A stretch of DNA of 41,652 nucleotides. It comes from Oscillospiraceae bacterium (GTDB lineage Bacteria; Bacillota; Clostridia; Oscillospirales; CAG-272). A model generated the notes under the pieces. That model worked only from the letters and a program-made list of their open reading frames with translations, was not told the DNA's origin and searched no databases. The DNA is taken from contig SVRH01000003.1 of the NCBI GenBank assembly GCA_015064925.1, forward strand, positions 1 through 41,652. The letters are read 5' to 3'. Below are positions 1 through 16,450 of the stretch, piece by piece. Each line of letters starts with the position of its first letter. The stretch's first letter is position 1. Both the position numbers and the translations under genes were made by a program.

Positions 1-2
1 GC

Positions 3-1796
3 TTCATTGACGGTCAGAAGATCGGTCAAGCCATTGAAAACATCCTTTCCTCCGCCGACGAGAGCGTCAACACCAAGAAGGCCATCAAGCGACTGGACGA
101 TGCCCGTGTAATGCTGCTTTACAAAAACAAAAAGGGCGGTAAGATCTACGAGCTGGAAAATGAAAAGGAAGATCTGCTTGCCCGCGCCCACCGCGCGGAA
201 GAGGACTGCCGTCTGATGGCAGAAAAGAAGAAGCTTCTTTCCGACACCAATGCAACCCTGAAAAAGAACGAGGAGCAGCTGCGCATTCTGGAGGACAAGC
301 TGGCCTACACCGATGCCAGCAGACGTCTGCAGCAGATCGAAAAATCAAAGCAAGCTGAAGAGCAGCTGCAGAACGCCACAGAAGAGCTGGACGACACCGT
401 TGCTTCCCTGCTCCACGGCGATTTTTGCCCCAACAAAGCCTACCTGCAAGCCCTTGAGCGAATGGGCAAGCAGCTCATTCAGATCTCGGAGGAAAAGAAA
501 AAGCTGTCCTCTAAGATCGAAGGCGCCCGCAACGAAGCAGACGCAGAGGAGGTGTGGGCTGACGCAGAAACCATTGCCAAGCTGCACTCCCACCGTCGCA
601 AGTCCGACAAGCTGCGGCTGTGTGCCATTCTGATGCTGCTGCCCGCCGTGATGCTTTGTGCCGTCGGCTTCTTCGCGTCCTTGCTGATCCTGACCATCCC
701 GATTCCCGTTCTGCTGCTGGCGATCTCGGGCGCACTCTTCTTCCTGCAGGCAAGAGAGAAAAAAGCGTTTGACGCCATTCTGCTGCAGCTGGGCGCCGAG
801 GATGAGGAGGCAGCCACCGAGATCATTGCCCTTTGCGCCGCCAAAAACGCCAAGATCGAGGCGGCAAAGCAATCGCTGGCAGAGCTGGAAGCCGAACGGA
901 CGGCAGTTGTACAAGCAGAGGCTGCCATGTGGAAGGACGCCATTGCCCTTGCGGCAAAATGGGGCAAAACGCTCACAGATCAGCGCAGCATGGCAGAGCT
1001 GATCCGCGAAGCGGAGCTTGCCTGCAACCGACTTGACATGGCAAGCGACGAAAAGCAGCGCTGCGAGCTGGCGTACAAGAATCTGTACACCGTCGCCTCC
1101 GAGGAAGAGGTCGCTGCTCTTTCCGAAATCTTGCAAAACGGAGGCACTGAGCTTTCGGGCGAGGACTACACCAAGGCATGTAACAATCGTAAATTCTATC
1201 GTCAGACCATCGATATGCTGCAAAAAAGGAAAAGAGAGACCGAGCATCTGCTCATCGAGCTGCGCACCAAGACTGAGATCCCCGAGGATCTGCGCCTGAA
1301 GGCCACCGAGCTTGAGGGCAAGATCCGCTCCCTGCGTCTGCGTCACGACGCATATCTGCTCGCCATTCAAAAGCTGACCGAGGCATCTGTGCTCCTTCGC
1401 TCCCGTATCACCCCTGCTCTGGCGGGACAGGCGTCCGAGTTCCTCTCGCATACCACCGAAGGTAAGTACCAAAGCGTTGGTGTTGCGGATGATTTCTCCC
1501 TCAGCTACAGCGACGGCAACGCCACAAGATCCACCGACTTTCTCAGCTGCGGCACCAAGGATCTGGCTTACCTTGGTCTGCGACTGGGGCTTTCCAAAGC
1601 ACTTTTTAAGGATGAAGAGATCCCGATGGTGTTTGACGAAAGCTTTGCACGCCTGGACGACCGCCGTCTGGCGACCGTCTTTACCTATCTTGCCGATTTC
1701 GCCGCAAAGGGCGGACAGATCCTTCTGATGACCAGCGGCAGACGGGAGCGGAAATACGCCGACGCCATCGGCAATTGCAACGTGATCCAACTGTGA
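3..1796 (+). CDS. YhaN/SbcC-like AAA-family ATPase with coiled coil and internal TM hairpin (5'-truncated by window edge)
   Basis: Frame stays open upstream of the 111 ATG to the window start (FIDGQKIGQAIENILSSADE...). Long coiled coil, hydrophobic hairpin (LCAILMLLPAVMLCAVGFF...), C-terminal ABC-like signature LSCGT and Walker B/D-loop MVFDESFARLD. Confidence 0.8.
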   Translation, partial: FIDGQKIGQAIENILSSADESVNTKKAIKRLDDARVMLLYKNKKGGKIYELENEKEDLLARAHRAEEDCRLMAEKKKLLSDTNATLKKNEEQLRILEDKLAYTDASRRLQQIEKSKQAEEQLQNATEELDDTVASLLHGDFCPNKAYLQALERMGKQLIQISEEKKKLSSKIEGARNEADAEEVWADAETIAKLHSHRRKSDKLRLCAILMLLPAVMLCAVGFFASLLILTIPIPVLLLAISGALFFLQAREKKAFDAILLQLGAEDEEAATEIIALCAAKNAKIEAAKQSLAELEAERTAVVQAEAAMWKDAIALAAKWGKTLTDQRSMAELIREAELACNRLDMASDEKQRCELAYKNLYTVASEEEVAALSEILQNGGTELSGEDYTKACNNRKFYRQTIDMLQKRKRETEHLLIELRTKTEIPEDLRLKATELEGKIRSLRLRHDAYLLAIQKLTEASVLLRSRITPALAGQASEFLSHTTEGKYQSVGVADDFSLSYSDGNATRSTDFLSCGTKDLAYLGLRLGLSKALFKDEEIPMVFDESFARLDDRRLATVFTYLADFAAKGGQILLMTSGRRERKYADAIGNCNVIQL

Positions 1797-1806
1797 GGTA
1801 AAAAAC

Positions 1807-2394
1807 ATGAAAATTTGCGTATACGGCGCTTCCAGCAACGAGATCGACCGCCGCTACCTTGACGCGGGAATGCTCCTCGGTGCCGCCATGGCAAAAAGAG
1901 GCCACGAATTGGTCTTCGGCGGCGGCAACACGGGCCTCATGGGGGCTGTGGCAAGGGGCGTACATCAAGAGGGCGGACGGGTCATCGGCATTGCCCCCCG
2001 CTTCTTCCGCGTGGACGGAGTGCTCTACCCCGACTGCGACGAGTGGATCTACACCGACACCATGCGCTCCCGCAAGGAAAAGATGGAACAGGTTTCGGAC
2101 GCCTTTCTAGTGACCCCCGGCGGCATCGGCACGCTGGACGAATTCTTTGAGATCTTCACCCTAAGACAGCTGGACCGCCACCACAAGCCCATTGCACTTC
2201 TGAACACGGGCGGCTATTTCGATCCCATTTCCCAAATGCTCGAAAGCATGGCAAAGGAACGGTTCTTGGTCGAAAGCTGCCTTGATCTGATCAAGATCAC
2301 CCCCGATCCCGAAGAAATCCTTGATTTTGTGGAGCAAAATCCCGCAGGGTCGCTGTCGGGCTCGGTACTGAAATTTTTGGAGGACGAGGTATGA
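1807..2394 (+). CDS. LOG-family (TIGR00730-like Rossmann fold) nucleotide phosphoribohydrolase
   Basis: Motifs ICVYGASS, GGGNTGLMG, MRSRK and PGGIGTLDE; GAGG RBS upstream. Confidence 0.9.
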   Translation: MKICVYGASSNEIDRRYLDAGMLLGAAMAKRGHELVFGGGNTGLMGAVARGVHQEGGRVIGIAPRFFRVDGVLYPDCDEWIYTDTMRSRKEKMEQVSDAFLVTPGGIGTLDEFFEIFTLRQLDRHHKPIALLNTGGYFDPISQMLESMAKERFLVESCLDLIKITPDPEEILDFVEQNPAGSLSGSVLKFLEDEV

Positions 2395-3149
2395 AAATAT
2401 TCGTTTCCGACTACGACGGCACCCTCAACCGCGGCGGCGGGGTCACCGAGCGTGACCTGAAGGCATTGGACGCCTGGCAGAAGGCAGGCAACCTCTTTGG
2501 CATCGCCTCGGGCAGAGATCTGCGGGGTCTTGTGAACGTATGGCAAAGGTGCCTGCCACTGAAGCCCGACTTCCTCATCGGCGGCAACGGCACCCAGCTG
2601 TACAGGGGACTTGAGGAGCGCGTGCTGCGCTTTTCTGCAAACGGCAAGGACGTGCCCCTGATCGTCGATCTGATCCTGCGGCGCGGCGGACGCATCGTGC
2701 ACATCACCGCCGAAGAGGGAAAGTACATCCTGTCCATGGACGGAAAGATCCCCGAAAATACAAAGGACTTCTACTTCACCCTCGACAATATCCCCGCCCC
2801 GAAGGAGGTCTACTCCCTCAACACCTACTTTGACACCAACAAGCTGGCAGAGGCGTTTTGCGCCGAATGCTGCACCTGCTTCCCCGCCTTTACCGCCTAT
2901 CAGAACACCGATTGCGGCGACATCGTTCCAAGGGGCACCGGCAAGGCGGAGGGCATTGCGGCGTACATAAAACACACGGGTCTGAAGCCCGAAATGGTCA
3001 TCACCGCGGGCGACTCGGGCAACGATCTGGGCATGCTGCGTGCTTACGTCGGCTGCACCCTACCAAATGCCGACGAGGAGCTGAAAACCGTGCTGGGAGA
3101 GGAAAACATCTATCCCGACATCGCGGCAATGCTCGAAAGATACCTGTAA
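2391..3149 (+). CDS. HAD-IIB (Cof-type) hydrolase
   Basis: Motif I SDYDGTL, motif II ASGR, motif III K in GTGKAEG, motif IV GDSGND; ATGA overlap with the LOG gene. Confidence 0.9.
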   Translation: MKIFVSDYDGTLNRGGGVTERDLKALDAWQKAGNLFGIASGRDLRGLVNVWQRCLPLKPDFLIGGNGTQLYRGLEERVLRFSANGKDVPLIVDLILRRGGRIVHITAEEGKYILSMDGKIPENTKDFYFTLDNIPAPKEVYSLNTYFDTNKLAEAFCAECCTCFPAFTAYQNTDCGDIVPRGTGKAEGIAAYIKHTGLKPEMVITAGDSGNDLGMLRAYVGCTLPNADEELKTVLGEENIYPDIAAMLERYL

Positions 3150-3165
3150 AAATTTCAACCATCCC

Positions 3166-3194
3166 TTTACAAAGCGGAATTTTTGTGCTATACT
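3166..3194 (+). promoter_or_regulatory. sigmaA promoter of tRNA-Arg
   Basis: TTTACA-17bp-TATACT with TGn extended -10, 11 nt before the tRNA 5' end. Confidence 0.7.
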
Positions 3195-3205
3195 CTTTGT
3201 GTTAT

Positions 3206-3282
3206 CTACCCGTGGCACAGCTGGATAGCGCGTCAGACTCCGACTCTGAAGGTCGAAGGTTCGAATCCTTTCGGGTAGGCCA
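3206..3282 (+). tRNA. tRNA-Arg (anticodon CCG)
   Basis: Acceptor stem CTACCCG/CGGGTAG, D loop AGCTGGATAG, anticodon arm TCAGA-CT-CCG-AC-TCTGA, T loop GGTTCGAATCC, encoded CCA end; 77 nt. Confidence 0.97.
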
Positions 3283-3283
3283 G

Positions 3284-3317
3284 AAAAAAGCCATTCGCAA
3301 AAGCGAATGGCTTTTTT
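3284..3317 (+). terminator. Intrinsic terminator after tRNA-Arg (potentially bidirectional)
   Basis: AAAAAA-GCCATTCGC-AAAA-GCGAATGGC-TTTTTT. Confidence 0.85.
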
Positions 3318-3319
3318 CA

Positions 3320-3504
3320 GTGAAATTCGCCTTCGGCGAGTGAAATATGGCTTCGCCATGTGAAATACTGTGCTAAAGCACGTGTGAAATATTTGCTACG
3401 CAAATGTGAGGAGGCGAATTTTATTTCACATTGCGACGAAGGAGCAATACTTCACAATTTCCAAAGGAAATTATTTCACATTCGGCAGGTGCCGAATATT
3501 TCAC
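3320..3504. repeat. Structured GTGAAAT/ATTTCAC box-and-hairpin element, copy 1 (candidate ncRNA or structured DNA site)
   Basis: GTGAAAT at 3320, 3340, 3360, 3384; ATTTCAC/ACTTCAC at 3423, 3449, 3473, 3498. Seven short hairpins lie between the boxes (e.g. TCGCC-TTC-GGCGA, ATGGC-TTC-GCCAT, ATTTGC-TAC-GCAAAT, AATTTCC-AAA-GGAAATT, ATTCGGCA-GG-TGCCGAAT). Confidence 0.9.
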
Positions 3505-3533
3505 TTGAAAAACTTACCGTGCTATGATATAAT
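3505..3533 (+). promoter_or_regulatory. sigmaA promoter abutting element copy 1, driving the four-helix-bundle gene
   Basis: TTGAAA-17bp-TATAAT with TGn extended -10; the -35 starts at the base right after the last ATTTCAC. Confidence 0.8.
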
Positions 3534-3556
3534 AACGGCAGAAAAGCGGTGTTACT

Positions 3557-3916
3557 ATGGCAGATTCAAAGCTTCGTGACCTATCCACAGATTTTGCGGT
3601 TAAAGTTATCAAAACGTGTGATGGCATAAAAGGGCATTATTCTCTTGTAAATCAGTTGGAGCGTTCCTCTACCTCAATTGGTGCCAATATTCACGAAGCG
3701 AATTATGCTCATAGCAAAGCCGACTTTGTTGCCAAGTTTCAAATTGCACTGAAGGAGTGCTACGAAACGGAATATTGGCTTGAATTATTCGTGAAATCCG
3801 AATTGCTGGATCGCGAGATTGCAAAAGAACTTTATAATCAGTGCGGAACGATTCGCAGAATGTTGATAGCCTCTATCAATACGGCGAAGGAGAACTCAAA
3901 TGACGGTAAAAAATGA
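3557..3916 (+). CDS. Four helix bundle protein (23S rRNA intervening-sequence protein/TIGR02436-like, Avd-related fold)
   Basis: Family signature QLERSSTSIGANIHEA-x4-SKADFVAKFQIALKECYETEYWLEL; 119 aa. Confidence 0.9.
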   Translation: MADSKLRDLSTDFAVKVIKTCDGIKGHYSLVNQLERSSTSIGANIHEANYAHSKADFVAKFQIALKECYETEYWLELFVKSELLDREIAKELYNQCGTIRRMLIASINTAKENSNDGKK

Positions 3917-4310
3917 TATAGTTTTGTGGGACAACGGAATAGATAAGTTTTGTTTATTAAAAGCACCAAACGAACAGCAATATAAATATATTGACGGTAT
4001 CCCTTGCATCACGTTTGGAATTTCTTATGAAAACACGAGTTTTAAGGGGTACGACACCTTTACTTTGTTTGACCATTTTTATTCTAACATAGTTAACGAG
4101 ATAGAAAGCACATATACTTCGCTAAACGGTTCTTTTCGCATCTATGACGTTGGTGCAGATACCGATGGGTATATTGAGGTTGTTATGACAAATGGGAAAC
4201 TATCTGTCAAAGGTCAGCTTGGCGCATCTTTTTCTTCACATTCGTTAATGTTTGAACTTGAAGCAGACCAAACTTTAGTAGGAAATCTGCTACAAGAGAT
4301 TACGTTTTGA
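3900..4310 (+). CDS. Hypothetical protein, possibly WapI-like immunity protein
   Basis: 136-aa AT-rich ORF overlapping the upstream gene by 17 nt. Acidic and beta-rich; C-terminus GKLSVKGQL...LMFELEADQTLV recalls WapI-family immunity proteins (from memory, unverified). Confidence 0.6.
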   Translation: MTVKNDIVLWDNGIDKFCLLKAPNEQQYKYIDGIPCITFGISYENTSFKGYDTFTLFDHFYSNIVNEIESTYTSLNGSFRIYDVGADTDGYIEVVMTNGKLSVKGQLGASFSSHSLMFELEADQTLVGNLLQEITF

Positions 4311-4399
4311 TTTTATGAGCGTAAGACTTTCACATTATCTACGCGCCTTTTTTGCCTTTGTACCTATGCTTACGCACCGTTTGCGCGCTTCTTCGCAAC

Positions 4400-4441
4400 A
4401 AAAAACGCACTTTTGTCTACCAAGACAATGTGTGCTTTTTT
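4400..4441 (+). terminator. Terminator-like hairpin preceding element copy 2
   Basis: AAAAAA-CGCAC-TT-TTGTCT-ACCA-AGACAA-TGTGTGC-TTTTTT; imperfect stem plus U tract, in the same position relative to the element as the 3284-3317 terminator. Confidence 0.6.
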
Positions 4442-4443
4442 CA

Positions 4444-4622
4444 ACGAAATTCGCCTTCGGCGAGTGAAATATGGCTTCGCCATGTGAAATACTGTGCTAA
4501 AGCACGTGTGAAATATTTGCTACGCAAATGTGATGGACGAATTTCATTTCACATTGCGACGAAGGAGCAATACTTTACTATGCCGATAGGCATAACTTCA
4601 CTACGGCTTGCCGCAACTTCGC
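4444..4622. repeat. Structured GTGAAAT/ATTTCAC box-and-hairpin element, copy 2
   Basis: 4446-4533 is identical to 3322-3409 (88 bp). Boxes at 4444 (ACGAAAT), 4464, 4484, 4508 and 4546, 4572, 4595, 4616 (ACTTCGC). The last two side hairpins differ in sequence from copy 1 but still pair. Confidence 0.9.
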
Positions 4623-4648
4623 TTTTAATGATTATACAAGGATACGCC

Positions 4649-4677
4649 TTGTTTTATTTGCAAAAGTGTAGTATAAT
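4649..4677 (+). promoter_or_regulatory. sigmaA promoter after element copy 2
   Basis: TTGTTT-17bp-TATAAT; the -35 overlaps the 3' arm of hairpin ACAAGG-ATACG-CCTTGT. Confidence 0.65.
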
Positions 4678-4698
4678 GGAACAAAGAAGAAAGGCGGG

Positions 4699-5070
4699 AT
4701 GAGTATGCCTCACGGATACAAAAGAGAATATAACGATGTTTTATATTTTAAGAAGGATCATTTTTGCCCCGAATGTAAAACAAAATTAGATAAAGTTCCT
4801 GTTTCAAGAGTTATTAATTCCGGCTCACCTGAAGCCAAGAATTTTGATTTCAGTATGCCCGGAGGGAATTTTGCTGTAGGTGATATTCAATTCATTTGGG
4901 ATGAATTTGAATGTCCAAACTGCCAAAAACACCTTACCGTAAATGAAATGAAAGCAATTGAGGGAATCCCATTACCTAAAAAACCAAGTAAATGGAGAAA
5001 AATACTGTTTTTGATATTTGGTATTCTTTTTTTAATTGCAGTAGCATTGATAAGAGAATATTTAAGTTGA
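4699..5070 (+). CDS. Hypothetical zinc-ribbon membrane protein
   Basis: CPEC and CPNC pairs, basic patch KKPSKWRK, then a C-terminal TM helix; AAGGCGG RBS; AT-rich. Confidence 0.8.
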   Translation: MSMPHGYKREYNDVLYFKKDHFCPECKTKLDKVPVSRVINSGSPEAKNFDFSMPGGNFAVGDIQFIWDEFECPNCQKHLTVNEMKAIEGIPLPKKPSKWRKILFLIFGILFLIAVALIREYLS

Positions 5071-5209
5071 CCTTTTGTTCACTTTTGCCTCAACTTTGAA
5101 CCTTATATCACGATGAAGGCAAAAAGCGCTTCACTTCCTGTTTTGCTTGCGCAGTACTTCACAGTTTTTAGGTTGATTAACACACAATTGAATGAAAGGA
5201 ATACACGAT

Positions 5210-5725
5210 ATGTATCACGGCATCCAAATCAGCCAAACGCGGCTGATAGCCAACAACATCATTTTCACCTGCTTGTTGCTTATAACCGTAGGTCTTGGAA
5301 TTTGGTATCTTATCTTTACCCACACAAGCGGCAATCTTAAAGATAGAAAGCGCATCAAAAGGCTGAAACAAAAAGCCAATCGTGACCCTTACGCAGAAAA
5401 GCAGCTGCAAAAATTAAAACGAAAGCAAAAATCGGTCAAAAAGACCAGTCTAAGCACCGATATACTGGTTTGGAGCTTACTTATCGTGCTTTTATCATTG
5501 AATCTATTTCTGGCAATCATCCCCGGCTGGACCGATTATATTAAAAAAGACTACGTAGTTTACGAAGGAAGCTTTGTGGTCGACCGATACACAAGAGGCA
5601 GTCATATAAATTTAGAAGACGGCACAAGGCTGACGGGCGCTCTTGATTTGGGCGAAGGCGAGCACACCGGCAGGATCGTATATTCCCGCCGCACCAAAAT
5701 TGCGCTCGGAAACGATATGAAATAG
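5210..5725 (+). CDS. Hypothetical membrane protein (2 TM helices, very basic linker)
   Basis: Start moved to ATG 5210 behind AAAGGA RBS. Two hydrophobic helices flank a K/R-rich loop, followed by a small beta-rich C-terminal domain. Confidence 0.75.
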   Translation: MYHGIQISQTRLIANNIIFTCLLLITVGLGIWYLIFTHTSGNLKDRKRIKRLKQKANRDPYAEKQLQKLKRKQKSVKKTSLSTDILVWSLLIVLLSLNLFLAIIPGWTDYIKKDYVVYEGSFVVDRYTRGSHINLEDGTRLTGALDLGEGEHTGRIVYSRRTKIALGNDMK

Positions 5726-5727
5726 TA

Positions 5728-5753
5728 AGAACCCGACGAAGCCGTCGGGTTCT
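5728..5753. terminator. Hairpin/terminator between convergent genes, right boundary of the islet
   Basis: AGAACCCGACG-AAGC-CGTCGGGTTCT followed by ATGTTTTTT. Confidence 0.75.
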
Positions 5754-5760
5754 ATGTTTT

Positions 5761-7992
5761 TTAGTCCTTGCGCTTGTTCATTTGGCGCTGCGCCATGACA
5801 AGGCCGTAATAAATGCCGTTTTGGCGCATCAGTTCGTCGTGAGTTCCCTGCTCCGCCACAGTGCCGCGATCCAGCACCACGATACGGGTGGCATTGCGCA
5901 GAGTGGACAAACGGTGCGCGATGGCGATGACCGTTCTTCCCTTGATCAGCTCCGCCAGCGCTTCCTGCACCTGCGCTTCGGTTTCGGTATCCAGTGCCGA
6001 GGTCGCCTCGTCCAGAATCAGGATCTTAGGATCGCGCAGCAGCGCTCTTGCGATCGCGATCCTCTGCCGCTCGCCGCCCGAAAGGGTGCAGCCCTTTTCT
6101 CCCACATAGGAATTGTAGCCGTCGGGCATCTTCACAATGAATTCGTGCGCTCTTGCCGTCATTGCCGCCGCAATGACCTCTTCCTTGGTGGCGTTTGGCT
6201 TGGCATAGGCAATGTTATCGTAAATGCTGCCGCTGAAGAGATAGGTCTCCTGCAGCACCGCGCCAATGCCCTTGCGCAGGCTTTCCTTGGGGATCTCCCG
6301 CACGTCTCTTCCGTCGATGCGGATGACGCCCTTATCGCTTTCATACATATGCATGATCAGATTGATCAGGGTGGTCTTGCCCACGCCCGAGCGCCCCACA
6401 AGTCCGATCATCTCGCCCGTACGAATGTCCAGATTGACGTTTCGCAGGACCTCCTTGTCCTCCTCGTAGGCAAAGGTGAGGTCGCGGATCTCGATGTTGC
6501 CCTCGATCTCCATTTCCTCGGTGTCGGTGCGGTCCTCCATCACGTCCTGATCCTCCAGAAGCTCGAGGATATTGGAAAAGGCGGTGGCGGTGCGCACCAA
6601 TCGGCGCGGCAGAGTGGTCATGTAACGAAGAGGACCGTACACCATGGTTACGTAGGCGGTGAACTGGGTCAGCTCTCCGTAGGTCATGCCCTTGCCGTCA
6701 AGGATCATTTTTCCTGCGTAAAACAGCAGCAAATACTGTCCGATGCCCATCAAAAAGCTGAGGATGGGCTGGATCTTTCCGAAAAAGACCTCGTTTCGGA
6801 TCTGAATGCGGCGCTCTGCATCGATGGCTTCATCGTAGCGCGCGATCTCCTTTTTTTCGGTGCCGTAGGTCTTGACCACCCGCATTCCCGAGAAAATATC
6901 GTGCAGCACCGTATTGGCACGGGCGTTCATCTTCCACTGACGGTGGTACATCCGACGGATGTAGCGGTGGAAGACCATGTACAGCAGCATGACAAGGGGA
7001 GCAGGCACCAGCACCAGCAGCGCCAGCTTCCAGTCGTATAAGAACAGCAAAACGGTGACCGAAGCCAAAATGAGGATCTGCTCGATCACGGTCGCCATTT
7101 CACGGGTGATGAAATCGCGGATGACCTCGGTGTCCGAATTGACTCTTTGCATCAATTCTCCCGTGGTACGGCGGCGGATGCAGCCGAGGGAGAGGCGATT
7201 GATCTTATCAAAGATCTGACCGCGCAGCTTGACGATGACTCCCTCGCCCATATGTATGGTGAGCAGCCCCCGCAGGATCCCCAACAGCTTAGAAAGCAGT
7301 CCTACCAAAAAGACGGTCAGCACCACCGACGCAAAGGCGACAAGGGCAGGTTTCTTATCCGCGCGGATGTAATCGTCCACCAGCACTCGGGAAACGTAGG
7401 GAGTGATCAGCTGCAGCAGCGAGCCTGCGATGAAGAGAAGGATCGAAAAGGCAAGCGTCAGGCGGAAGGGCTTGATGATCGACAAAATGCCGGCGAGCAG
7501 ATCCTTTTTACTGCGGCAGCGGGGACAGACCGACGCCCCGGGGGCAAGGGGTCTGTGGCATTTTGGACAAACGCCCCCCATTTTCTTATGCTCGTGAGCC
7601 TCATAGGCTTCGCCCTCGATCTGCGCACGAATGCGGGCAGCCGCATCGGCAAAGGCGCCTGCAGCACTGCGGTCAGAGGCGCACAGCGCGTGTTCCTCAC
7701 CGCTCTTGGTAACAAGACAGATCTGCACGCCTCCCGGTGTCTTTTCCATGCGGGCGCTCTTTAAAAGCACCAACGGATACTCACATCGGCTTCCCTCGTC
7801 ATAGGCAAGCAGGCGATCCTCCAGCAGGCATACCACGCCCTCTGCTCTGTCATATCCCCCCTCGTCCACCGAGCGGTTATAAAAGAAGCTGAAGAGAACC
7901 TGCTCCGTATTCAATTGTTCGTCATACATATGCGCCAGCTCTGTCGGCGTGCGCATCGGTTCTTTCTTCTTAGCGGCGTGTAACATATCCAA
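5761..7992 (-). CDS. ABC exporter, fused permease/ATPase, with N-terminal extension and CxxC zinc ribbon
   Basis: Walker A GRSGVGKT, LSGGERQR, ILILDEATS, IAHRLST; 6-TM domain; CPKC-x10-CPRC before the TMD. Confidence 0.92.
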   Translation of the reverse strand: MDMLHAAKKKEPMRTPTELAHMYDEQLNTEQVLFSFFYNRSVDEGGYDRAEGVVCLLEDRLLAYDEGSRCEYPLVLLKSARMEKTPGGVQICLVTKSGEEHALCASDRSAAGAFADAAARIRAQIEGEAYEAHEHKKMGGVCPKCHRPLAPGASVCPRCRSKKDLLAGILSIIKPFRLTLAFSILLFIAGSLLQLITPYVSRVLVDDYIRADKKPALVAFASVVLTVFLVGLLSKLLGILRGLLTIHMGEGVIVKLRGQIFDKINRLSLGCIRRRTTGELMQRVNSDTEVIRDFITREMATVIEQILILASVTVLLFLYDWKLALLVLVPAPLVMLLYMVFHRYIRRMYHRQWKMNARANTVLHDIFSGMRVVKTYGTEKKEIARYDEAIDAERRIQIRNEVFFGKIQPILSFLMGIGQYLLLFYAGKMILDGKGMTYGELTQFTAYVTMVYGPLRYMTTLPRRLVRTATAFSNILELLEDQDVMEDRTDTEEMEIEGNIEIRDLTFAYEEDKEVLRNVNLDIRTGEMIGLVGRSGVGKTTLINLIMHMYESDKGVIRIDGRDVREIPKESLRKGIGAVLQETYLFSGSIYDNIAYAKPNATKEEVIAAAMTARAHEFIVKMPDGYNSYVGEKGCTLSGGERQRIAIARALLRDPKILILDEATSALDTETEAQVQEALAELIKGRTVIAIAHRLSTLRNATRIVVLDRGTVAEQGTHDELMRQNGIYYGLVMAQRQMNKRKD

Positions 7993-7997
7993 ATCCT

Positions 7998-8513
7998 TTA
8001 AATGTACAGCTCTATTTTCTTATAGCTCTTTTTTTCCAGTGCTGTGACGTCCTCGATCTCAAAACGGTTACCGTCAATATCGGTCAAAATCAGTCTGCCA
8101 TCCGGCAAACGGAAGAGATTGCGGTACACGTCCTGTACGGTGAAGCAAAGGGGACCGATATCGGTCTTGACGTGGAAGGTGGTCCTGCCAAAGCGGTCCT
8201 TCACGTCATCCACCCGCAGGATCTTCGGCATGAAGTATAGCCGATCCAGCTCCTTTTTCAGCAGCTTGCGCTGCGCTTCGGGGAATTCGTTGATATCGGG
8301 GATCATCCCCACTTCCCGCTCGTCCTTTCCCGCCACCGAAATATAGCGGTATGGCTCTGCTGCGGGGAACGCGCGGCGCAGATAGACTCTGGAAAAATGC
8401 AGCTCCACGCTGTACTGCGGCGTGTTCTTTGCCTTCATGACCATCGCAGGGAAATCACCCTTTTGCGTGAAAACAGCGTTTCTTGGCGTGATCAATACGT
8501 TTTTTACGCTCAT
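7998..8513 (-). CDS. DUF1854-like protein
   Basis: RRAFP...YISV...EVGMI...ELDRLYFMPKI...VKTDIGP...LTDIDGNRFEI pattern; lies between two ABC exporters. Confidence 0.75.
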   Translation of the reverse strand: MSVKNVLITPRNAVFTQKGDFPAMVMKAKNTPQYSVELHFSRVYLRRAFPAAEPYRYISVAGKDEREVGMIPDINEFPEAQRKLLKKELDRLYFMPKILRVDDVKDRFGRTTFHVKTDIGPLCFTVQDVYRNLFRLPDGRLILTDIDGNRFEIEDVTALEKKSYKKIELYI

Positions 8514-8528
8514 ATCAGGTCCTTTCCG

Positions 8529-10850
8529 CTATTCCTCAATGCCGATACTGCGCATTGCGCTCATCTGCAATCCAAACAGCTTGTGGTAAATTCCTTTTTT
8601 CGAAAGCAGCTCAAGGTGGGTTCCCTCCTCGGCAATTCTGCCGTTTTCGATGACGATCAGTCGATCCACGTCCTTGAGCGTGGACAAACGGTGTGCGATC
8701 ATCAAAGTGGTACGCCCCTTCGACAGCGCTTCAATGGCGCCCTGCACCTTGCGCTCGGTCTCGGTATCCATGGATGCGGTGGCTTCGTCCAAGATCAGGA
8801 TCTTGGGATTGCGCAGGATGGCGCGTGCGATCGAAACGCGCTGACGCTCTCCGCCCGACAGTCCCACACCACCCTCGCCGATCTGTGTTTCGTAGCCCTG
8901 CGGCAAGCGGATGATAAAATCGTGCGCCCCTGCCGCTCTGGCAGCCGCCAGGATCTCGTCTCTGGAGGCAGTGGGTCTGGCATAGGCAATATTCTCGTAA
9001 ATCGATCCGAGGAACAGATAGGTCTCCTGCGAAACGATCGCCACGTTGCGTCTGAGTTCCTCGGGAGAAAGCGTAGAAATATCCACACCGTCAATGTAGA
9101 TCTTGCCTGCGTCCGGGTCATACAGACGCACCAGCAGGTTGGCAAGCGTGCTCTTGCCCGCGCCTGTTCTGCCCACAATTCCCAGCGACGTGCCCGCAGG
9201 CACACGGAAGGAAAGATCCTTTAAGACAGGGTGACCGCTGACGTAGGCAAAGCTGACGTCCTTGAACTCCACCTCCGCCCGACATCCCTTTTCAAAGGTA
9301 GCAGGCTCTTCGGGCAGAGGAAGGCTATCGGGAGAATCCATGATCTCAAACAGACGTCCCATGGCGTTCATGCTATCGGCAGCATGGCTGACCATATCCA
9401 CAAACATCCGAAGCGGCGCGTAGATCATGCCGGTATAGGCAACAAAGGTCATCAGCTCACCGTAGCTCAGCCCCTTGCCCCCGATCACCATCCATCCGCC
9501 AAAGCCCCACACAAGGATCTCTCCGATCCCCAGCAGGATACCGATCAGCGGATTGCAAACGGTGGCATATGTAGAGGCAGCACGGTCCGCCTTGGCTGCC
9601 GCATTGCTGCGACGGTCAAAGCGTGCGCTTTCCTTTTCCTCCTCCGAGAACGCCTTGACCGTACGGATACCGCCCAGCACGTCCGCCACAAGAGAGCTCA
9701 GGCTCTTGCGTCTGGCAAAGCGGCGGTTGTGCAGCACGTGCATTCCGGCAAAGAATCGGTAGATTCCGAATGCCACCAGCGGCACGGTGATAAGCGCAAG
9801 CGCCGCCAGCAGAGGATTGATATAGAACATGATGGCACCGATCGCGATCACCTGAATGAGATTGACCGTGAAATAAGGAATGCCGTCACAGAAAAACCAG
9901 TAGATGGTGTTGGCGTCCGAGGTGATCTGAGTCATCAGCGCACCCGTGCGCTTGCTTTGGAAGAAGGACATCCCCAGCCGTCCGATCTCGGCAAAGATCC
10001 GATTTTTCAGATCGTACACCAGATTGGCAGCGATGCGGGAGGAAACGATATTGTGAACAATGGTCAGCAGCGCCGACAAAAGCGCCGTTCCGAGGATCAT
10101 CAAAATGACCGTCAGCAGCTGCCCGTAAAAGCCGCCCTTCTCATCCAGCACCTGATCGTAGAAAAATCCGGCACCAATGTAGGGTGTGAGCACCGAAACA
10201 ACTCCTGATATCAGCATCAGAAGCAGCACCGACAGCATTTGCCAGCGATAGCGACGCAAGAAAACACCCATCCTGCGCATGATATTGCGACGATCCTGAC
10301 AGCGAGGACATCTTCCGTCCTCAGCATACAGCGTACCGCAGACAGAGCAGTAACGGGAGGACTGCTTGCCCTGCGAAAGGGTGGAAGGAAGGATTTTACC
10401 GTACTTTCGAATATCCTTCAGCATCGCGAGTGCTGCGTACGCTTCATCGCGGTAGGTGAAGGTATACGCCGCGATCGACACGTGGGTACCGTCATGATGC
10501 ACGCCTGCTAACAGCAGTCTGGAGGGTGACTCCTCAATGATAATGTCCACAAAGTCGGCAAGCACAAAGCATTCCACTGCCTCTTCGGTGAACACGTAGC
10601 CATAGCGCTTTTTTCTTCTCTTTTCACCGGTGAGCTTCTGGATCTTCATATAGCCCTGCACCATATAAAGATGGTCCTTGGTTACCAGATAATAACGGTT
10701 CGTACGTCCCAGCGAAAGATCGGTATCCGTGCGGAACGCCAGCAACACAGCATCGGGCAAAATGCCTCTGGAAACCATCACGCCATCCAGCTCCGGCGGA
10801 ATGCGGTCCGGTTTTCTGGGATCAAAATTCCACTGTACAAATCCTGCCAT
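8529..10850 (-). CDS. ABC exporter, fused permease/ATPase, with N-terminal extension and CxxC zinc ribbon
   Basis: GRTGAGKST, LSGGERQR, ILILDEAT, IAHRLST; CSVC-x9-CPRC; GGAGGTG RBS. Confidence 0.92.
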   Translation of the reverse strand: MAGFVQWNFDPRKPDRIPPELDGVMVSRGILPDAVLLAFRTDTDLSLGRTNRYYLVTKDHLYMVQGYMKIQKLTGEKRRKKRYGYVFTEEAVECFVLADFVDIIIEESPSRLLLAGVHHDGTHVSIAAYTFTYRDEAYAALAMLKDIRKYGKILPSTLSQGKQSSRYCSVCGTLYAEDGRCPRCQDRRNIMRRMGVFLRRYRWQMLSVLLLMLISGVVSVLTPYIGAGFFYDQVLDEKGGFYGQLLTVILMILGTALLSALLTIVHNIVSSRIAANLVYDLKNRIFAEIGRLGMSFFQSKRTGALMTQITSDANTIYWFFCDGIPYFTVNLIQVIAIGAIMFYINPLLAALALITVPLVAFGIYRFFAGMHVLHNRRFARRKSLSSLVADVLGGIRTVKAFSEEEKESARFDRRSNAAAKADRAASTYATVCNPLIGILLGIGEILVWGFGGWMVIGGKGLSYGELMTFVAYTGMIYAPLRMFVDMVSHAADSMNAMGRLFEIMDSPDSLPLPEEPATFEKGCRAEVEFKDVSFAYVSGHPVLKDLSFRVPAGTSLGIVGRTGAGKSTLANLLVRLYDPDAGKIYIDGVDISTLSPEELRRNVAIVSQETYLFLGSIYENIAYARPTASRDEILAAARAAGAHDFIIRLPQGYETQIGEGGVGLSGGERQRVSIARAILRNPKILILDEATASMDTETERKVQGAIEALSKGRTTLMIAHRLSTLKDVDRLIVIENGRIAEEGTHLELLSKKGIYHKLFGLQMSAMRSIGIEE

Positions 10851-10874
10851 TGTGTCACCTCCATTTCATCTTTC

Positions 10875-10904
10875 AGTATAACACACAAAGTAGCAATTTG
10901 TCAA
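10875..10904 (-). promoter_or_regulatory. sigmaA promoter of the ABC-DUF1854-ABC operon
   Basis: Minus strand TTGACA-18bp-TATACT with TGn. Confidence 0.65.
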
Positions 10905-10929
10905 CGATACCGCATACATTTCGCTATTT

Positions 10930-12024
10930 TTATCCCGAATTCCTTGCATCCGTCGCTGAAACCCCGCGTTTTTCCCGTACGACTCCCAACAGCACCGTCA
11001 CGGCAAGAGGCGCTAAGATCAATCCGGTAAAGCCAAAAAGGGAAAATCCGAAATACATGGATGCCAGCGCGTGAAAGGGGTGCAGTCCCAGCTTTTTACC
11101 GATGATCCTCGGTTCGATCGCCTGCCGCGATGCGGTGATCAGCGCCCAAAGCACAAGAAGTCCGATGGCACTTTTCATATCCCCCGAGAGCAGCCGTACG
11201 ATCGCCCAAGGGATCATGACCGTACCCGTTCCGAGAATGGGAAAAAAGTCAATGACGGCAATGATCGCTGCCAGCGTCAGACTATACGGGATGCGCAGCA
11301 GCGTAAATCCGAGGAACAGCTGCAAAAAGGTAAACACCAGCAAAATCAACGCTGCCTTGAGATACTGCCAAAGACAGTCTCCCGCGCGACGGCGCAAATA
11401 CTGCATCTCCTTGACGATACGATCGGGCAGCACAGCATACAGTCCCTTGAAGATCCGCTCTCGGTCGGTTGTCAAGTAATAGGAAGCAATCATCAGTACC
11501 ACCACAAAGAACAAAAGCAGCGGCAAGCATCCCAAAACCGACGAGAGGATCCCGGGAATGGCAGCCACCAGGCCGCTTGCCGCGCCAGACAATGCATCTC
11601 GCACCACCGCGCCAAAGCTCTTGCTGGCAAAATACTCCTTTGCCGCAGGGAACCATTCGCCAAGCTTATTCTGCAGCGTCCCCGCCAGCTGCGAGGGTCC
11701 TGTATCGGACGGGACCTCCTGTGCCAAAAACGAGCCTGCCTCCTCTACCAAGCGCAGTAAGGTCAGATAGGATAAAAGAAGAAGCCCGAAAATCAGCAAG
11801 AGCAGAAGCAAAACCGTGCAAAGACGGACAGGAATACGGAATTTGCGGTACAAAAACTGCACCACCGGACGGATCATGGATGAGAGCAGCAGCGCCAGCA
11901 AAAAGGGCAGCAGCGGCATCCAGAAAAAGCGGAAAAACAAATAAAAAAGCGCGCAGGCGATGGTTGCGTAAAAAACGACGACAAACACACGCTTGTACGG
12001 TTCTTTCGGTAAAAATTCTATCAT
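10930..12024 (-). CDS. ytvI: Sporulation integral membrane protein YtvI (AI-2E family)
   Basis: LLPFLLALLLS, IDFFPILGTGTVMIPWA and RQAIEPRIIGKKLGLHP motifs. Confidence 0.85.
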   Translation of the reverse strand: MIEFLPKEPYKRVFVVVFYATIACALFYLFFRFFWMPLLPFLLALLLSSMIRPVVQFLYRKFRIPVRLCTVLLLLLLIFGLLLLSYLTLLRLVEEAGSFLAQEVPSDTGPSQLAGTLQNKLGEWFPAAKEYFASKSFGAVVRDALSGAASGLVAAIPGILSSVLGCLPLLLFFVVVLMIASYYLTTDRERIFKGLYAVLPDRIVKEMQYLRRRAGDCLWQYLKAALILLVFTFLQLFLGFTLLRIPYSLTLAAIIAVIDFFPILGTGTVMIPWAIVRLLSGDMKSAIGLLVLWALITASRQAIEPRIIGKKLGLHPFHALASMYFGFSLFGFTGLILAPLAVTVLLGVVREKRGVSATDARNSG

Positions 12025-15091: not shown

Positions 15092-16450
15092 TTGAAATAT
15101 TCCTCTGAAGAACAACATCGAAAAATGACGGAAACTCCTATTCCGCGTCTTGTGCTTTCGCTCGCCATACCCACGGTACTCAGCCAGCTGGTAACGGTGA
15201 TCTATAACACGGCTGACACCTTTTTCGTTTCTAAATTGGGCAACAGCGCCTCGGCATCCGTGGGTGCAGTCTTCCCCGTCATGGCGTTCATCCAAGCCTT
15301 TGGCTTCGGCATCGGCATGGGCGGCGGCAGCCTGGTCAGCCGCCATTTGGGAGCCAAGCAAAACAAAGAAGCCGAAAAGACGGCCGTCAGCGCGCTGGTC
15401 TTTGCCGTGACCCTCGGTATTCTGATGCTGCTTGGCGGTATATTTGCCATTGAACCGCTCATGGACGTACTGGGCGTCAGCAACACCATGCGTCCCTATG
15501 CCATCGATTACTGCCGCATTATCATGATGGGTGCCCCATTCATGTGTGCCTCCTTTGTGCTCAACAATCTCCTGCGTGCAGAGGGAGCCGCAGTGCTTTC
15601 CATGATCGGGCTTTGCTCCGGCGGGCTTCTCAATCTCATTCTGGACCCACTCTTCATTTTCGCGTTTGACATGGGAATCGCGGGAGCGGCGCTTGCCACG
15701 GTGATCAGCCAATTCGTGGGACTCTCCATCCTGTTTTCCGCCTTTTTCCTTGGCAAGAGCATCGTCCCCCTACGGCCAAGCGAGATCAGTCGCAGCTGGC
15801 GCGATTACGCGCTGATCCTGCGCACGGGACTTCCCACCATCGCGCGCCAAGGCATTGCCAGCCTTGCGGGGATCCTACTCAACAATCAGCTTACCCCCTA
15901 CGGGGACGCCGCCATGTCTGCCATCATCAGCATCACCAACAAGGTCTATATGCTCATGCGAAACATCGTCATCGGCATCGGTCAGGGCTTTCAGCCGGTG
16001 GCGGGCTACAATTACGGTGCAGGCAAGCATGACCGCGTAAAGGAAGCGTTCCGTTTTGCCACCATTCTCGGTACTGTTGTTTGTACCGTCAGCGCCATAC
16101 TTGTGGCGATCTTTGCTCCTACCATCGTTAAATGGTTCCGAAACGACCCGGACGTCATCCGCATCGGAGTGCGCTCTCTTCTATTCTGCTGCGCCGTGAC
16201 GCCGCTCATGGCATACTCCACCTTCGTCAATCAGCTGTTGCAAGGGCTTGGCTTTGCAAAGCAGGCAACGCTGCTTGCCATGTGCCGACAGGGCTTCTGC
16301 TATCTGCCCCTAATCCTACTTTTACCGCAGTGCATCGGACTTACGGGTGTACAACTCTCTCAACCGATCTCCGATCTGCTGACCTGTCTCATCGCACTTC
16401 CCTGCCAGATCCACTTCTTTAAAAAGCATTTGTCACAACAAACGCTGTAA
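15092..16450 (+). CDS. MATE-family efflux transporter
   Basis: IYNTADTFFVS, NLILDPLFIF...GIAGAALATVISQ and QPVAGYNYGA motifs. TTG start at 15092 behind GAAAGGA; the ORF-track start at 14987 lies upstream of the promoter. Confidence 0.9.
   Translation: MKYSSEEQHRKMTETPIPRLVLSLAIPTVLSQLVTVIYNTADTFFVSKLGNSASASVGAVFPVMAFIQAFGFGIGMGGGSLVSRHLGAKQNKEAEKTAVSALVFAVTLGILMLLGGIFAIEPLMDVLGVSNTMRPYAIDYCRIIMMGAPFMCASFVLNNLLRAEGAAVLSMIGLCSGGLLNLILDPLFIFAFDMGIAGAALATVISQFVGLSILFSAFFLGKSIVPLRPSEISRSWRDYALILRTGLPTIARQGIASLAGILLNNQLTPYGDAAMSAIISITNKVYMLMRNIVIGIGQGFQPVAGYNYGAGKHDRVKEAFRFATILGTVVCTVSAILVAIFAPTIVKWFRNDPDVIRIGVRSLLFCCAVTPLMAYSTFVNQLLQGLGFAKQATLLAMCRQGFCYLPLILLLPQCIGLTGVQLSQPISDLLTCLIALPCQIHFFKKHLSQQTL

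Follow-up and report, generated by a model that had tools for sequence, protein, structure and literature searches.

In this study, we describe a repeated intergenic element in a stretch of DNA from an Oscillospiraceae bacterium (GenBank assembly GCA_015064925.1, contig SVRH01000003.1, positions 1 to 41,652 of the forward strand), the whole of which, at its full length of 41,652 nucleotides (nt), is called the window below. Behind a tRNA-Arg gene lie two copies of this element, element 1 (E1) and element 2 (E2), each unit ending in a consensus promoter and a ribosome-binding site (RBS) that drive a small cassette of genes (Table 1). The piece at 4442-4622 is the second copy of a two-armed intergenic element of about 180 nt, and the motif published as Gut-1 is the 5' arm of this element only. 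We regard this identity as secure, and its mechanism is what we infer from the evidence presented here. The source genome assembly comprises 1.77 Mb in 123 contigs and is 88% complete.

The element and its two copies

According to Weinberg et al. (2010; PMC2864571), Gut-1 is a 77-nt orphan non-coding RNA found in the human gut only. The 5' 77 nt of both copies in the window match the full Gut-1 model (Rfam RF01706, model positions 1-77) on the plus strand, with its three hairpins separated by GUGAAAU; the match has 63 bits in E1 (3318-3395) and 62.7 bits in E2 (4442-4519), the gathering score being 50. At relaxed thresholds the model also recognizes the 3' halves, there on the minus strand (48.2 bits for E1, 3418-3506, and 33.4 bits for E2). 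Since the 5' half is recognized on one strand and the 3' half on the other, the real unit is two-armed and about 180 nt long. It differs from Gut-1 as published in that the motif is here one arm of a larger unit, which has a closing helix outside the model, a mirror arm on the opposite strand, a flanking terminator and promoter, and a linkage to tRNA genes. It also differs in that other variants of the heptamer box escape the model (locus L119 was not detected by it) and in its carriers, among which are records labelled as metagenome-assembled genomes (MAGs) from animal guts.

The source genome has 17 Gut-1 matches, nearly all of them in convergent pairs about 20 nt apart, and convergent pairs are also found in relatives. 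All 26 aligned full elements, taken from the source genome and eight relatives, share one plan. A two-way terminator is followed by CA, a first box (GTGAAAT or ACGAAAT) and four GC-rich mini-hairpins, each with GTGAAAT behind it (the last box being partial); then come the centre, four ATTTCAC boxes with three longer hairpins between them, and the promoter. Across units, the boxes of the 5' arm number four or five. The box itself occurs in at least eight variants (GTGAAAT, ATGAAAT, GTGAAGT, GTGATAT, ATGATAT, GTGATGT, ATGATGT, AATGAAG and others), and across these variants the box of the 3' arm is always the reverse complement of that of the 5' arm. A loose regular expression for the boxes was tried for module parsing and was dropped on account of spurious boxes. 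The order of the arms is swapped, with the inverted boxes first, at loci L129, L135 and L134 and at 2900-3060 of source-genome contig C11, which means that either both orders exist or whole elements are inverted relative to their flanks.

Table 1. Features from the tRNA-Arg gene to the end of the second cassette (window coordinates)
Feature	Position	Strand	Description and basis
tRNA-Arg (CCG)	3206-3282	+	Island starts directly after its CCA end
Two-way terminator before E1	3283-3317	.	A-run, 9-bp GC-rich stem, T-run; direct reading, absent from the list of the automated scan; same terminator type before elements behind other tRNAs
E1, 5' arm	3318-3422	+	CA; GTGAAAT boxes at 3320, 3340, 3360, 3384; Gut-1 match
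E1, 5'-arm hairpins	3327-3339, 3347-3359, 3367-3383, 3391-3405		
E1, centre	3406-3422		GTGA + GGCGAATTTT
E1, helix P1	3322-3331		Paired with centre; RNAalifold and covariation
E1, 3' arm	3423-3504	+	Boxes ATTTCAC 3423, ACTTCAC 3449, ATTTCAC 3473 and 3498; minus-strand Gut-1 match, covariation
E1, 3'-arm hairpins	3430-3448, 3456-3472, 3480-3497		
Promoter behind E1	3505-3533	+	TTGAAA-17-TATAAT, TG extension; 11/12 matches; -35 hexamer abuts last E1 box
Cassette 1, gene 1	3557-3916	+	Four-helix-bundle protein (PF05635 / TIGR02436; S23p/Avd-like); family match; PDB 2rld, E = 6.8e-23
Cassette 1, gene 2 (orf136)	3900-4310	+	136-amino-acid (aa) protein, no family in scan; overlaps end of gene 1
Two-way terminator closing cassette 1, before E2	4400-4441	.	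Direct reading; terminators of this family (loop ..ttgtctaccaagacaa..) also precede elements in other genomes
E2, 5' arm	4442-4545	+	CA; first box ACGAAAT 4444; GTGAAAT 4464, 4484, 4508; four E1 hairpins; centre 4530-4545 with four differences
E2, 3' arm (hybrid)	4546-4622	+	E1-like part: box ATTTCAC 4546, hairpin 4553-4571
E2, 3' arm, subfamily-B modules			ACTTTAC 4572, hairpin 4579-4594, ACTTCAC 4595, hairpin 4602-4615 (one A.C mismatch), ACTTCGC 4616
Remnant module, third box family	4628-4677	+	ATGATTAT + hairpin 4636-4652 (from scan); overlaps putative promoter
Putative promoter behind E2	4649-4654, 4672-4677	+	TTGTTT-17-TATAAT; manual reading, below threshold of promoter scan
Cassette 2	4699-5725	+	123-aa zinc-ribbon/membrane protein (4699-5070), 177-aa membrane protein (5192-5725); no family in scan
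Terminator ending cassette 2	5728-5753		Common to converging ABC-transporter gene

In a self-comparison of the window, 3310-3409 and 4434-4533 are 98% identical, the sole two differences being GT/AC at 3320-3321 / 4444-4445, and 88 nt (3322-3409 and 4446-4533) are without a difference. The next 53 nt are less alike (87% between 3415-3467 and 4538-4590). Common to E1 and E2 are the four 5' hairpins, the centre and the first hairpin of the 3' part, and divergence starts at the second 3' box, at 3449/4572. On direct reading, the distal palindromes are AATTTCC-AAA-GGAAATT (3456-3472) and ATTCGGC-AGGT-GCCGAAT (3480-3497) in E1 and TATGCC-GATA-GGCATA (4579-4594) and TACGGC..GCCGCA (4602-4615) in E2; the outer boxes are GTGAAAT (3320-3326) and ATTTCAC (3498-3504) in E1 and ACGAAAT (4444-4450) and ACTTCGC (4616-4622) in E2. 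An earlier note on this DNA had stated that the two 88-nt stretches are identical and that the 3' part of the second copy carries other palindromes, and both statements agree with the self-comparison and the direct reading. It had further drawn the last E2 palindrome as a hairpin, TACGGC-TT-GCCGCA; the palindrome is present, but its second pair is an A.C mismatch and a loop of 2 nt is not feasible.

Hairpin pairing and exchange of modules

The spacers between the boxes are palindromic well beyond what is seen in shuffled sequence. The 44 distinct spacers of 5' arms have a mean of 4.1 consecutive end pairs, compared to 0.71 after shuffling (maximum of 200 shuffles, 1.2), and the 72 distinct spacers of 3' arms have 5.3 compared to 0.60 (maximum of 200, 0.92). 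In the alignment of the 26 full elements, the four well-aligned hairpins comprise 19 pairs, with 98.4% of 490 cells paired, and 99 cells are changed on both sides compared to 6 on one side (giving wobble pairs); 0 of 500 shuffles reached such values. In addition, RNAalifold gave a helix, P1, in which GAAAT of the first box and the 5' strand of hairpin 1 pair with the centre. This helix lies outside the 77-nt Rfam model and has 11 pairs, which are 99.3% paired with 50 double-change cells. Because the strand formed by the first box and hairpin 1 takes part in both P1 and the local hairpin, it can pair either locally or with the centre.

The earlier note had proposed that the outer boxes covary, a T-A pair in E1 being swapped for C-G in E2. 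This proposal did not hold: at the position concerned 18 of the 26 elements are mismatched, 7 have U-A and C-G is present in E2 alone, the helix is no better than its shuffles, and it is the centre that the first box pairs with instead. It is nevertheless the case that the minimum-energy fold of E1 pairs its outer boxes together; the fold z-scores, computed as RNA, are -5.7 for E1 and -3.2 for E2. As to the more general claim that selection acts on secondary structure, the palindromes are indeed kept while their sequence changes, as the paired cells and double changes given above show. That the structure under selection is one of RNA does not follow, as both strands are alike and the element has a particular position between terminator and promoter.

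The triloops of the hairpins are of the type C-TNC-G on the strand reading GTGAAAT, and so C-GNA-G or GNRA-like on the strand reading ATTTCAC, in both arms, and wobble pairs are scarce, with 0 G.T and 6 A.C of 197 pairs in the 5' arm and 9 G.T and 5 A.C of 360 in the 3' arm. C-GNA-G is a very stable type of DNA mini-hairpin, and a low wobble content is unusual for RNA families. With covariation that is alike for both strands, the strand that folds cannot be named from these data.

These observations bear on the idea, embodied in the Rfam entry, that each arm is the gene of a free-standing small RNA (sRNA) that works in trans, for instance as a sponge in which repeated single-stranded GUGAAAU linkers separate the hairpins. 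The matches above the gathering score would agree with it, as would contigs from RNA libraries that cover the elements and Table 1 of Weinberg et al. (2010; PMC2864571), in which Gut-1 is rated 'Y' as an RNA on the basis of covariation. However, neither arm has a promoter before it: directly upstream there is a terminator, and the one strong promoter is directed away from the element. As the model is matched on both strands, covariation names no strand; only 6 of 490 cells are wobble pairs; and the copies are mosaic and partly decayed. The depth of the RNA libraries over the element, moreover, mirrors that of a DNA run: three RNA libraries and one DNA run (contigs) give the same depth profile over the tRNA gene, the elements and the PF05635 gene, and in all of them a flanking housekeeping gene is uncovered, from which it follows that the source organism is not in these runs and that the libraries are uninformative on transcription. 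We therefore consider a free-standing sRNA quite improbable.

The source genome also holds a second subfamily, with GTGAAGT/ACTTCAC boxes, on contigs C113, C120 and C105. The last 51 nt of E2 are identical at 44 of 52 positions to the distal arm of the C120 element and at 42 of 51 to that of C113, compared to 37 of 56 for the distal arm of E1. These alignments show E2 to be a recombinant between subfamilies, in which the 5' arm, the centre and the first 3' hairpin are E1-like and the last two modules come from the GTGAAGT/ACTTCAC sister subfamily. The distal hairpins of E2 are thus modules of that subfamily and not, as the earlier note had implied, compensated versions of those of E1. E2 is also slightly decayed, with two degenerate boxes (ACTTTAC and ACTTCGC), one broken pair and a bulge in the centre helix. 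Modules homologous to the remnant behind it (ATGATAT + acaaggc..gccttg) occur after other elements.

Such mosaicism is found across the family. Among the 325 pairs formed by the 26 elements, the likeness of two 5' arms says little about that of their 3' arms (r = 0.20 for identity); three pairs are at least 95% identical in the 5' arm and at most 80% in the 3' arm, four show the reverse, and two are at least 95% identical in both arms. Identical hairpin modules are found at different positions in different elements. One clear breakpoint is seen in 44 of the 325 pairs, at alignment columns 36-58, 98-106, 120-123 (9 pairs), 138-145 (10 pairs) and 168 (8 pairs). Many contigs terminate inside elements, and where metagenome contigs have loose ends the sequence passes into a different arm, at 4450, 4540-4541, 4554 and 3464-3469. 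The view expressed in the earlier note that the copies belong to a larger, recombining repeat family is in agreement with the shuffled arms, the several breakpoints and the 17 matches of the source genome, but its single conserved crossover near 3450/4575 gives way to breakpoints at several module borders.

A family of this kind could be a selfish or neutral repeat, in which gene conversion and unequal crossing-over spread intact palindromic modules and the structure is not selected. The covariation is in fact almost wholly module replacement, as the ratio of double to single changes shows, a limited vocabulary of hairpins recurs at different positions, and E2 is decayed. This proposal does not explain why the plan is conserved across the families of an order and reaches Akkermansia, why the box sequence changes in step in both arms, why the position relative to terminator and promoter is fixed, or why there is a tight link with one protein family, PF05635, and we give it little credence. 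In Escherichia coli REP/BIME, Neisseria NIME (dRS3 + RS units) and pneumococcal BOX elements, short boxes alternate with hairpin modules in variable number and order, and these repeats are intergenic, lie near terminators and are recombination hot spots. The likeness is one of mosaic design and position. The element described here differs from them in its box and hairpin design, its two-arm dyad plan, its fixed promoter junction and its links to tRNA genes and PF05635. Mobilization by a RAYT transposase, as for REP/BIME, was considered and rejected, as the PF01797 transposase does not co-occur with Gut-1 (15 of 37 Gut-1-positive compared to 5 of 24 negative genomes).

tRNA genes, cassettes and the PF05635 protein

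Units occur singly or in short arrays behind tRNA genes. Directly behind a same-strand tRNA gene, typically by 30-45 nt, lie 28 of 72 distinct element matches, and 23 of 50 full-length elements are so placed, with at least 12 anticodons represented; in the source genome, which has 32 tRNAs, an element follows those for Arg-ACG, Arg-CCG, Tyr, Val and Gln. In genome G001, of the same genus, the orthologous tRNA-Arg(CCG) gene is followed by an ordinary terminator, with neither element nor cassettes, and 3283-5760 of the window therefore behaves as an insertion after the CCA end, with the caveat that synteny further downstream of the tRNA gene also differs between the two genomes. The tRNA 3' end is not duplicated as an attachment site in 3283-9000 (no duplicate of at least 10 nt).

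The cargo varies. PF05635 is the family of the first gene behind the element in 7 of 27 cases scanned; other first genes encode a methyltransferase, a DUF3885 protein, an XRE regulator, an ion channel, a DNA methylase, a GNAT protein, an ECF sigma factor, a DMP19-like protein, an ADP-ribosylglycohydrolase and many family-less small membrane proteins. One promoter and RBS module was found ahead of different genes. Two families share a DUF3885 cassette, which stands after tRNA-Val in G020 and after tRNA-Ala in G048, the 3' arms being different. Contig C11 has a second copy of orf136, with another terminator behind it and then an element from a third box family.

Some further observations concern the flanks of these tRNA genes. 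At locus L077 (5020-5600; G018:C28), a tRNA 3' end, terminator and ATGATAT-family element are tandemly duplicated with a period of 410 nt. Behind the elements of one subfamily stands a conserved module of about 70 nt (..gagagttcgaa[tg]tcata..gccgaaaatatctttt..gtagcccatagaca..; also ..gagagttcgaattcata..gtagcccatagaca..) with a terminator, as seen at L047 (4200-4300), L097 (5186-5290), L105 (minus strand, about 4880-5000), L022 and L062; it is sometimes the sole content of a 'cassette', with the next element about 100 nt on, and the Rfam search gave no family for it. Another tRNA-flank motif (..gagcc[ct]cgagaattttgcgcagcaaaatt..) is found on contigs C85 (about 3025-3110), C105 (about 15620-15710, minus strand) and C113 (about 10020-10110), and a further one (..ccctaaaatccgcaggatttt..gttttgcgc..) behind two tRNA-Leu genes on C40 and C88. 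The tRNA 3' flanks of the source genome thus seem to gather several repeat families. Beyond the second cassette, on the minus strand of 5761-10850, a DUF1854 gene lies between two paralogous genes for fused ABC transporters (743 and 773 aa), and their paralogy accounts for a 139-nt direct repeat with 71% identity (6115-6253 and 8892-9030).

The position behind tRNA genes raises the question of whether the element is a cassette-boundary recombination site. It would serve for attachment or crossover, or form the two paired ends of small cassettes that are mobile and insert after tRNAs; like integron attC sites or the ends of cargo elements that lack a transposase, it would act as folded DNA, single-stranded or duplex, and a putative recombinase would cut at the boxes. 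The island missing from G001, the elements behind tRNAs of many anticodons, the arrays with varied cargo, the DUF3885 cassette behind two different tRNAs, orf136 in two junction contexts, the shuffling of arms and modules with breakpoints at module borders, the contigs that end inside elements and, lastly, the C-GNA-G / C-TNC-G triloops with their near absence of wobble pairs would all be accommodated by such a site. However, there is no recombinase among the 12 ORFs (open reading frames) of window positions 1-12000, and neither a duplicated tRNA 3' end nor a target duplication was found. The Y1 (IS200/RAYT-type) transposase is without association, as noted above, and is not present in the high-copy genomes G003, G015, G018, G039 and G048, which have 21-51 Gut-1 matches each. 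Nor would such mosaics need a dedicated enzyme, as homologous recombination between the repeated modules would produce them too. We consider a dedicated recombination site unlikely, though it is the strongest of the alternatives.

Integron attC sites offer a parallel for such a site. In attC, structure is conserved and sequence varies between inverted 7-nt boxes, the sites punctuate arrays of small accessory genes, and composite copies occur. The element shares the conservation of structure over sequence with inverted 7-nt boxes, the accessory-gene arrays and the composite copies. It differs in that neither an integrase nor attI is found nearby (among the same 12 ORFs), in that it has 4+4 boxes with side hairpins rather than one imperfect stem, in the boxes themselves, which are unlike integron core sites, and in the cassettes, which have their own promoters and terminators and belong to another host phylum. 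When set against miniature inverted-repeat transposable elements and mobile insertion cassettes, the arms prove to be inverted at the level of the boxes, the tRNA end is not duplicated, and the copies are mosaic and not uniform.

The product of the first gene behind E1 is a TIGR02436 'four helix bundle protein' that matches PDB 2rld, a structure with five chains. In the source genome, an element immediately precedes each of the two PF05635 genes. Of 61 genomes from the order, 30 have Gut-1 and PF05635, 7 Gut-1 only, 4 PF05635 only and 20 neither, counts that are not independent as the genomes are related, and PF05635 is present in all 14 genomes with at least ten Gut-1 matches. Manual reading upstream of 29 PF05635 genes in relatives gave 18 box-plus-hairpin arrays (two- or one-armed) and 11 arrays of plain tandem heptamers, two of them weak. 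These arrays use other heptamers (ATGATGT, GTGATGT, GTGATAT, AATGAAG, ATGAAGCG, ATGAATTG and others), again with reverse-complementary opposite arms. A 6-mer occurring at least five times is found upstream of 22 of the 29 genes, compared to 3.4% of 3000 random windows, and PF05635 clades track box types. At L136, L138 and L139, plain-heptamer relatives behind tRNAs have the 3' strand of the tRNA terminator stem a second time, placed between the direct and inverted arrays, which follows the same logic as helix P1 of the Gut-1 type, where the first hairpin strand is repeated at the centre.

In the 23S rRNA intervening sequence of Coxiella, tandem heptamers whose number varies between strains precede the S23p ORF, the 28-bp terminal stem is cut by RNase III in vitro, and the crystal structure of S23p is homopentameric (PMC4990558). 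The S23p intervening sequences of Coxiella and Leptospira share with the element the PF05635 family, the tandem heptamers before the ORF, the inverted terminal arrays giving a 28-bp stem (here 4 x 7), the location at stable-RNA genes and a patchy, mobile-looking distribution (PMC4990558). E1 likewise combines a PF05635 ORF with 4+4 inverted heptamer boxes; E2 has the arrays with a different gene behind them. The element differs in lying 36 nt behind tRNA-Arg in a window with no rRNA match, in having both arrays upstream of the ORF, hairpins between the heptamers and its own terminator and promoter, and in its mostly other cargo. With the terms used, the literature search gave no paper on the context of Gut-1 or on heptamers with Avd-like genes, heptamers being mentioned only in the Coxiella paper (PMC4990558).

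The arrays extend well beyond the order. In all five plasmid records inspected, from five phyla (Treponema, Nostoc, Bernardetia, Monoglobus and Chlorohelix), heptamer arrays stand upstream of a four-helix-bundle gene and their inverted complement downstream, for example GTCGGAR x4 and TCCGACY x4 in Nostoc; in the same order as the source organism, L110, L112 and L130 have arrays upstream and inverted arrays downstream of a PF05635 gene. In the Monoglobus plasmid (L263) and in Chlorohelix (L264) the four-helix-bundle gene, unannotated in L263, lies inside restriction-modification operons (hsdS-hsdR; helicase-methylase). A pattern scan with one genome per species gave at least 120 stretches, which among the matches listed are labelled mostly as gut Clostridia MAGs of ruminants, horse, chicken and people; given these animal-gut carriers, Gut-1 is not 'human gut only'. 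Three Akkermansia loci (L143:3250-3301, L148:7007-7059 and L204:3842-3894) have arrays of GTGAAAT and hairpins that resemble the 5' arm of Gut-1, and a mirror arm is not obvious there. In Bacteroidota (L140, L206), tandem GTGAAAT arrays were set aside as pattern-driven, their neighbouring ORFs of 287-712 aa being, judged by length alone, far longer than the four-helix-bundle protein, and cyanobacterial and archaeal arrays were set aside likewise. A diversity-generating retroelement (Avd with a reverse transcriptase) was rejected, as the source genome (88% complete) has no PF00078 match.

With plain heptamers replacing box-plus-hairpin arrays before other PF05635 genes, it might be thought that the boxes are a double-stranded operator array, read in the duplex by a heptad-binding regulator (PF05635 or other) that represses or activates the abutting promoter, the spacers being incidental or bound by a second factor. 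The -35 hexamer indeed follows the last box at offset 0 in 14 of the 16 promoters detected within 25 nt of the 39 full elements examined, and all boxes of an element are of one kind and, from family to family, change in concert. An operator would leave unexplained the spacers that stay palindromic when their sequence is swapped, the pairing of the centre with the first box and the conserved triloop type, and 23 of the 39 elements have no strong promoter within 25 nt. This reading therefore appears improbable to us, if less so than an sRNA or a neutral repeat. The omega repressor of inc18 plasmids, a ribbon-helix-helix protein, binds contiguous heptads, WATCACW. Both systems have 7-bp units, direct and inverted, near promoters in Firmicutes, and the box ATATCAC resembles WATCACW; however, a ribbon-helix-helix gene was not identified in our analysis, and omega arrays have nothing that corresponds to the hairpin spacers.

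A proposed role for the heptamer boxes

The explanation that we favour, tentatively and at somewhat less than even weight, is that the boxes are recognition or pairing units related to the PF05635 heptamer arrays and gate the abutting promoter, recombination being a by-product. The heptamer boxes would be the functional units and the counterpart of the inverted heptamer arrays that flank PF05635 genes and occur in 23S rRNA intervening sequences. Once a strand is freed, be it as read-through RNA or as unwound or extruded DNA, each spacer would form a mini-hairpin of its own, which would bring the four boxes of an arm next to each other; pairing between these and the four boxes of the opposite arm could then build a segmented stem of 4 x 7 = 28 bp. 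The box array may serve as a binding or processing platform for the PF05635 pentamer, whose protein the first gene of a cassette typically encodes, and in this way gate the promoter that abuts it. The repeated identical boxes would also serve as crossover points, from which mosaic copies may arise.

Several findings weigh against this explanation. The element lies between a strong terminator and an outward-firing promoter, so a defined RNA is not evident. The likeness of the boxes within an element exceeds what base pairing requires, E1 (ACTTCAC at 3449) and E2 have uncompensated box differences, and the outer box pair is without covariation. Both arrays of the Gut-1 type are upstream of the gene, unlike the bracketing arrays in other phyla. 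As regards the partner protein, 20 of the 27 first genes scanned are not PF05635, E2 likewise has no PF05635 gene behind it, and no PF05635 was found in 7 of the 37 Gut-1-positive genomes. Linkage alone could explain the match between clades and box types, and the source genome has at least three box families compared to two PF05635 genes found in its 88%-complete assembly, a count that bears on the idea of one paralogue per box family.

A broader proposal, possible although we are more doubtful of it, is that PF05635 pentamers and their cognate heptamer arrays form a widespread, previously undescribed module for the recognition of nucleic acids. This module might underlie 23S rRNA intervening sequences, the insertions in restriction-modification operons and the tRNA-linked cassette platform of gut Clostridia, with the fold-out hairpins of the latter making the site of the protein exist only in single-stranded or extruded DNA or in RNA.

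An orphan 'structured RNA' since 2010, Gut-1 is now placed in a larger unit of tRNA, terminator, two arms, promoter and cassette, and our analysis questions whether it is an RNA at all. It gains a candidate partner protein family and relatives in other phyla, and its function becomes directly testable. On the practical side, the elements break metagenome assemblies and mark sites of variable accessory genes in abundant gut Clostridia. The findings also offer a starting point for explaining the biology of S23p/four-helix-bundle genes and of rRNA intervening sequences, and, if the recognition module proposed here is true, it would be a structure-gated switch for the expression and exchange of accessory cassettes.

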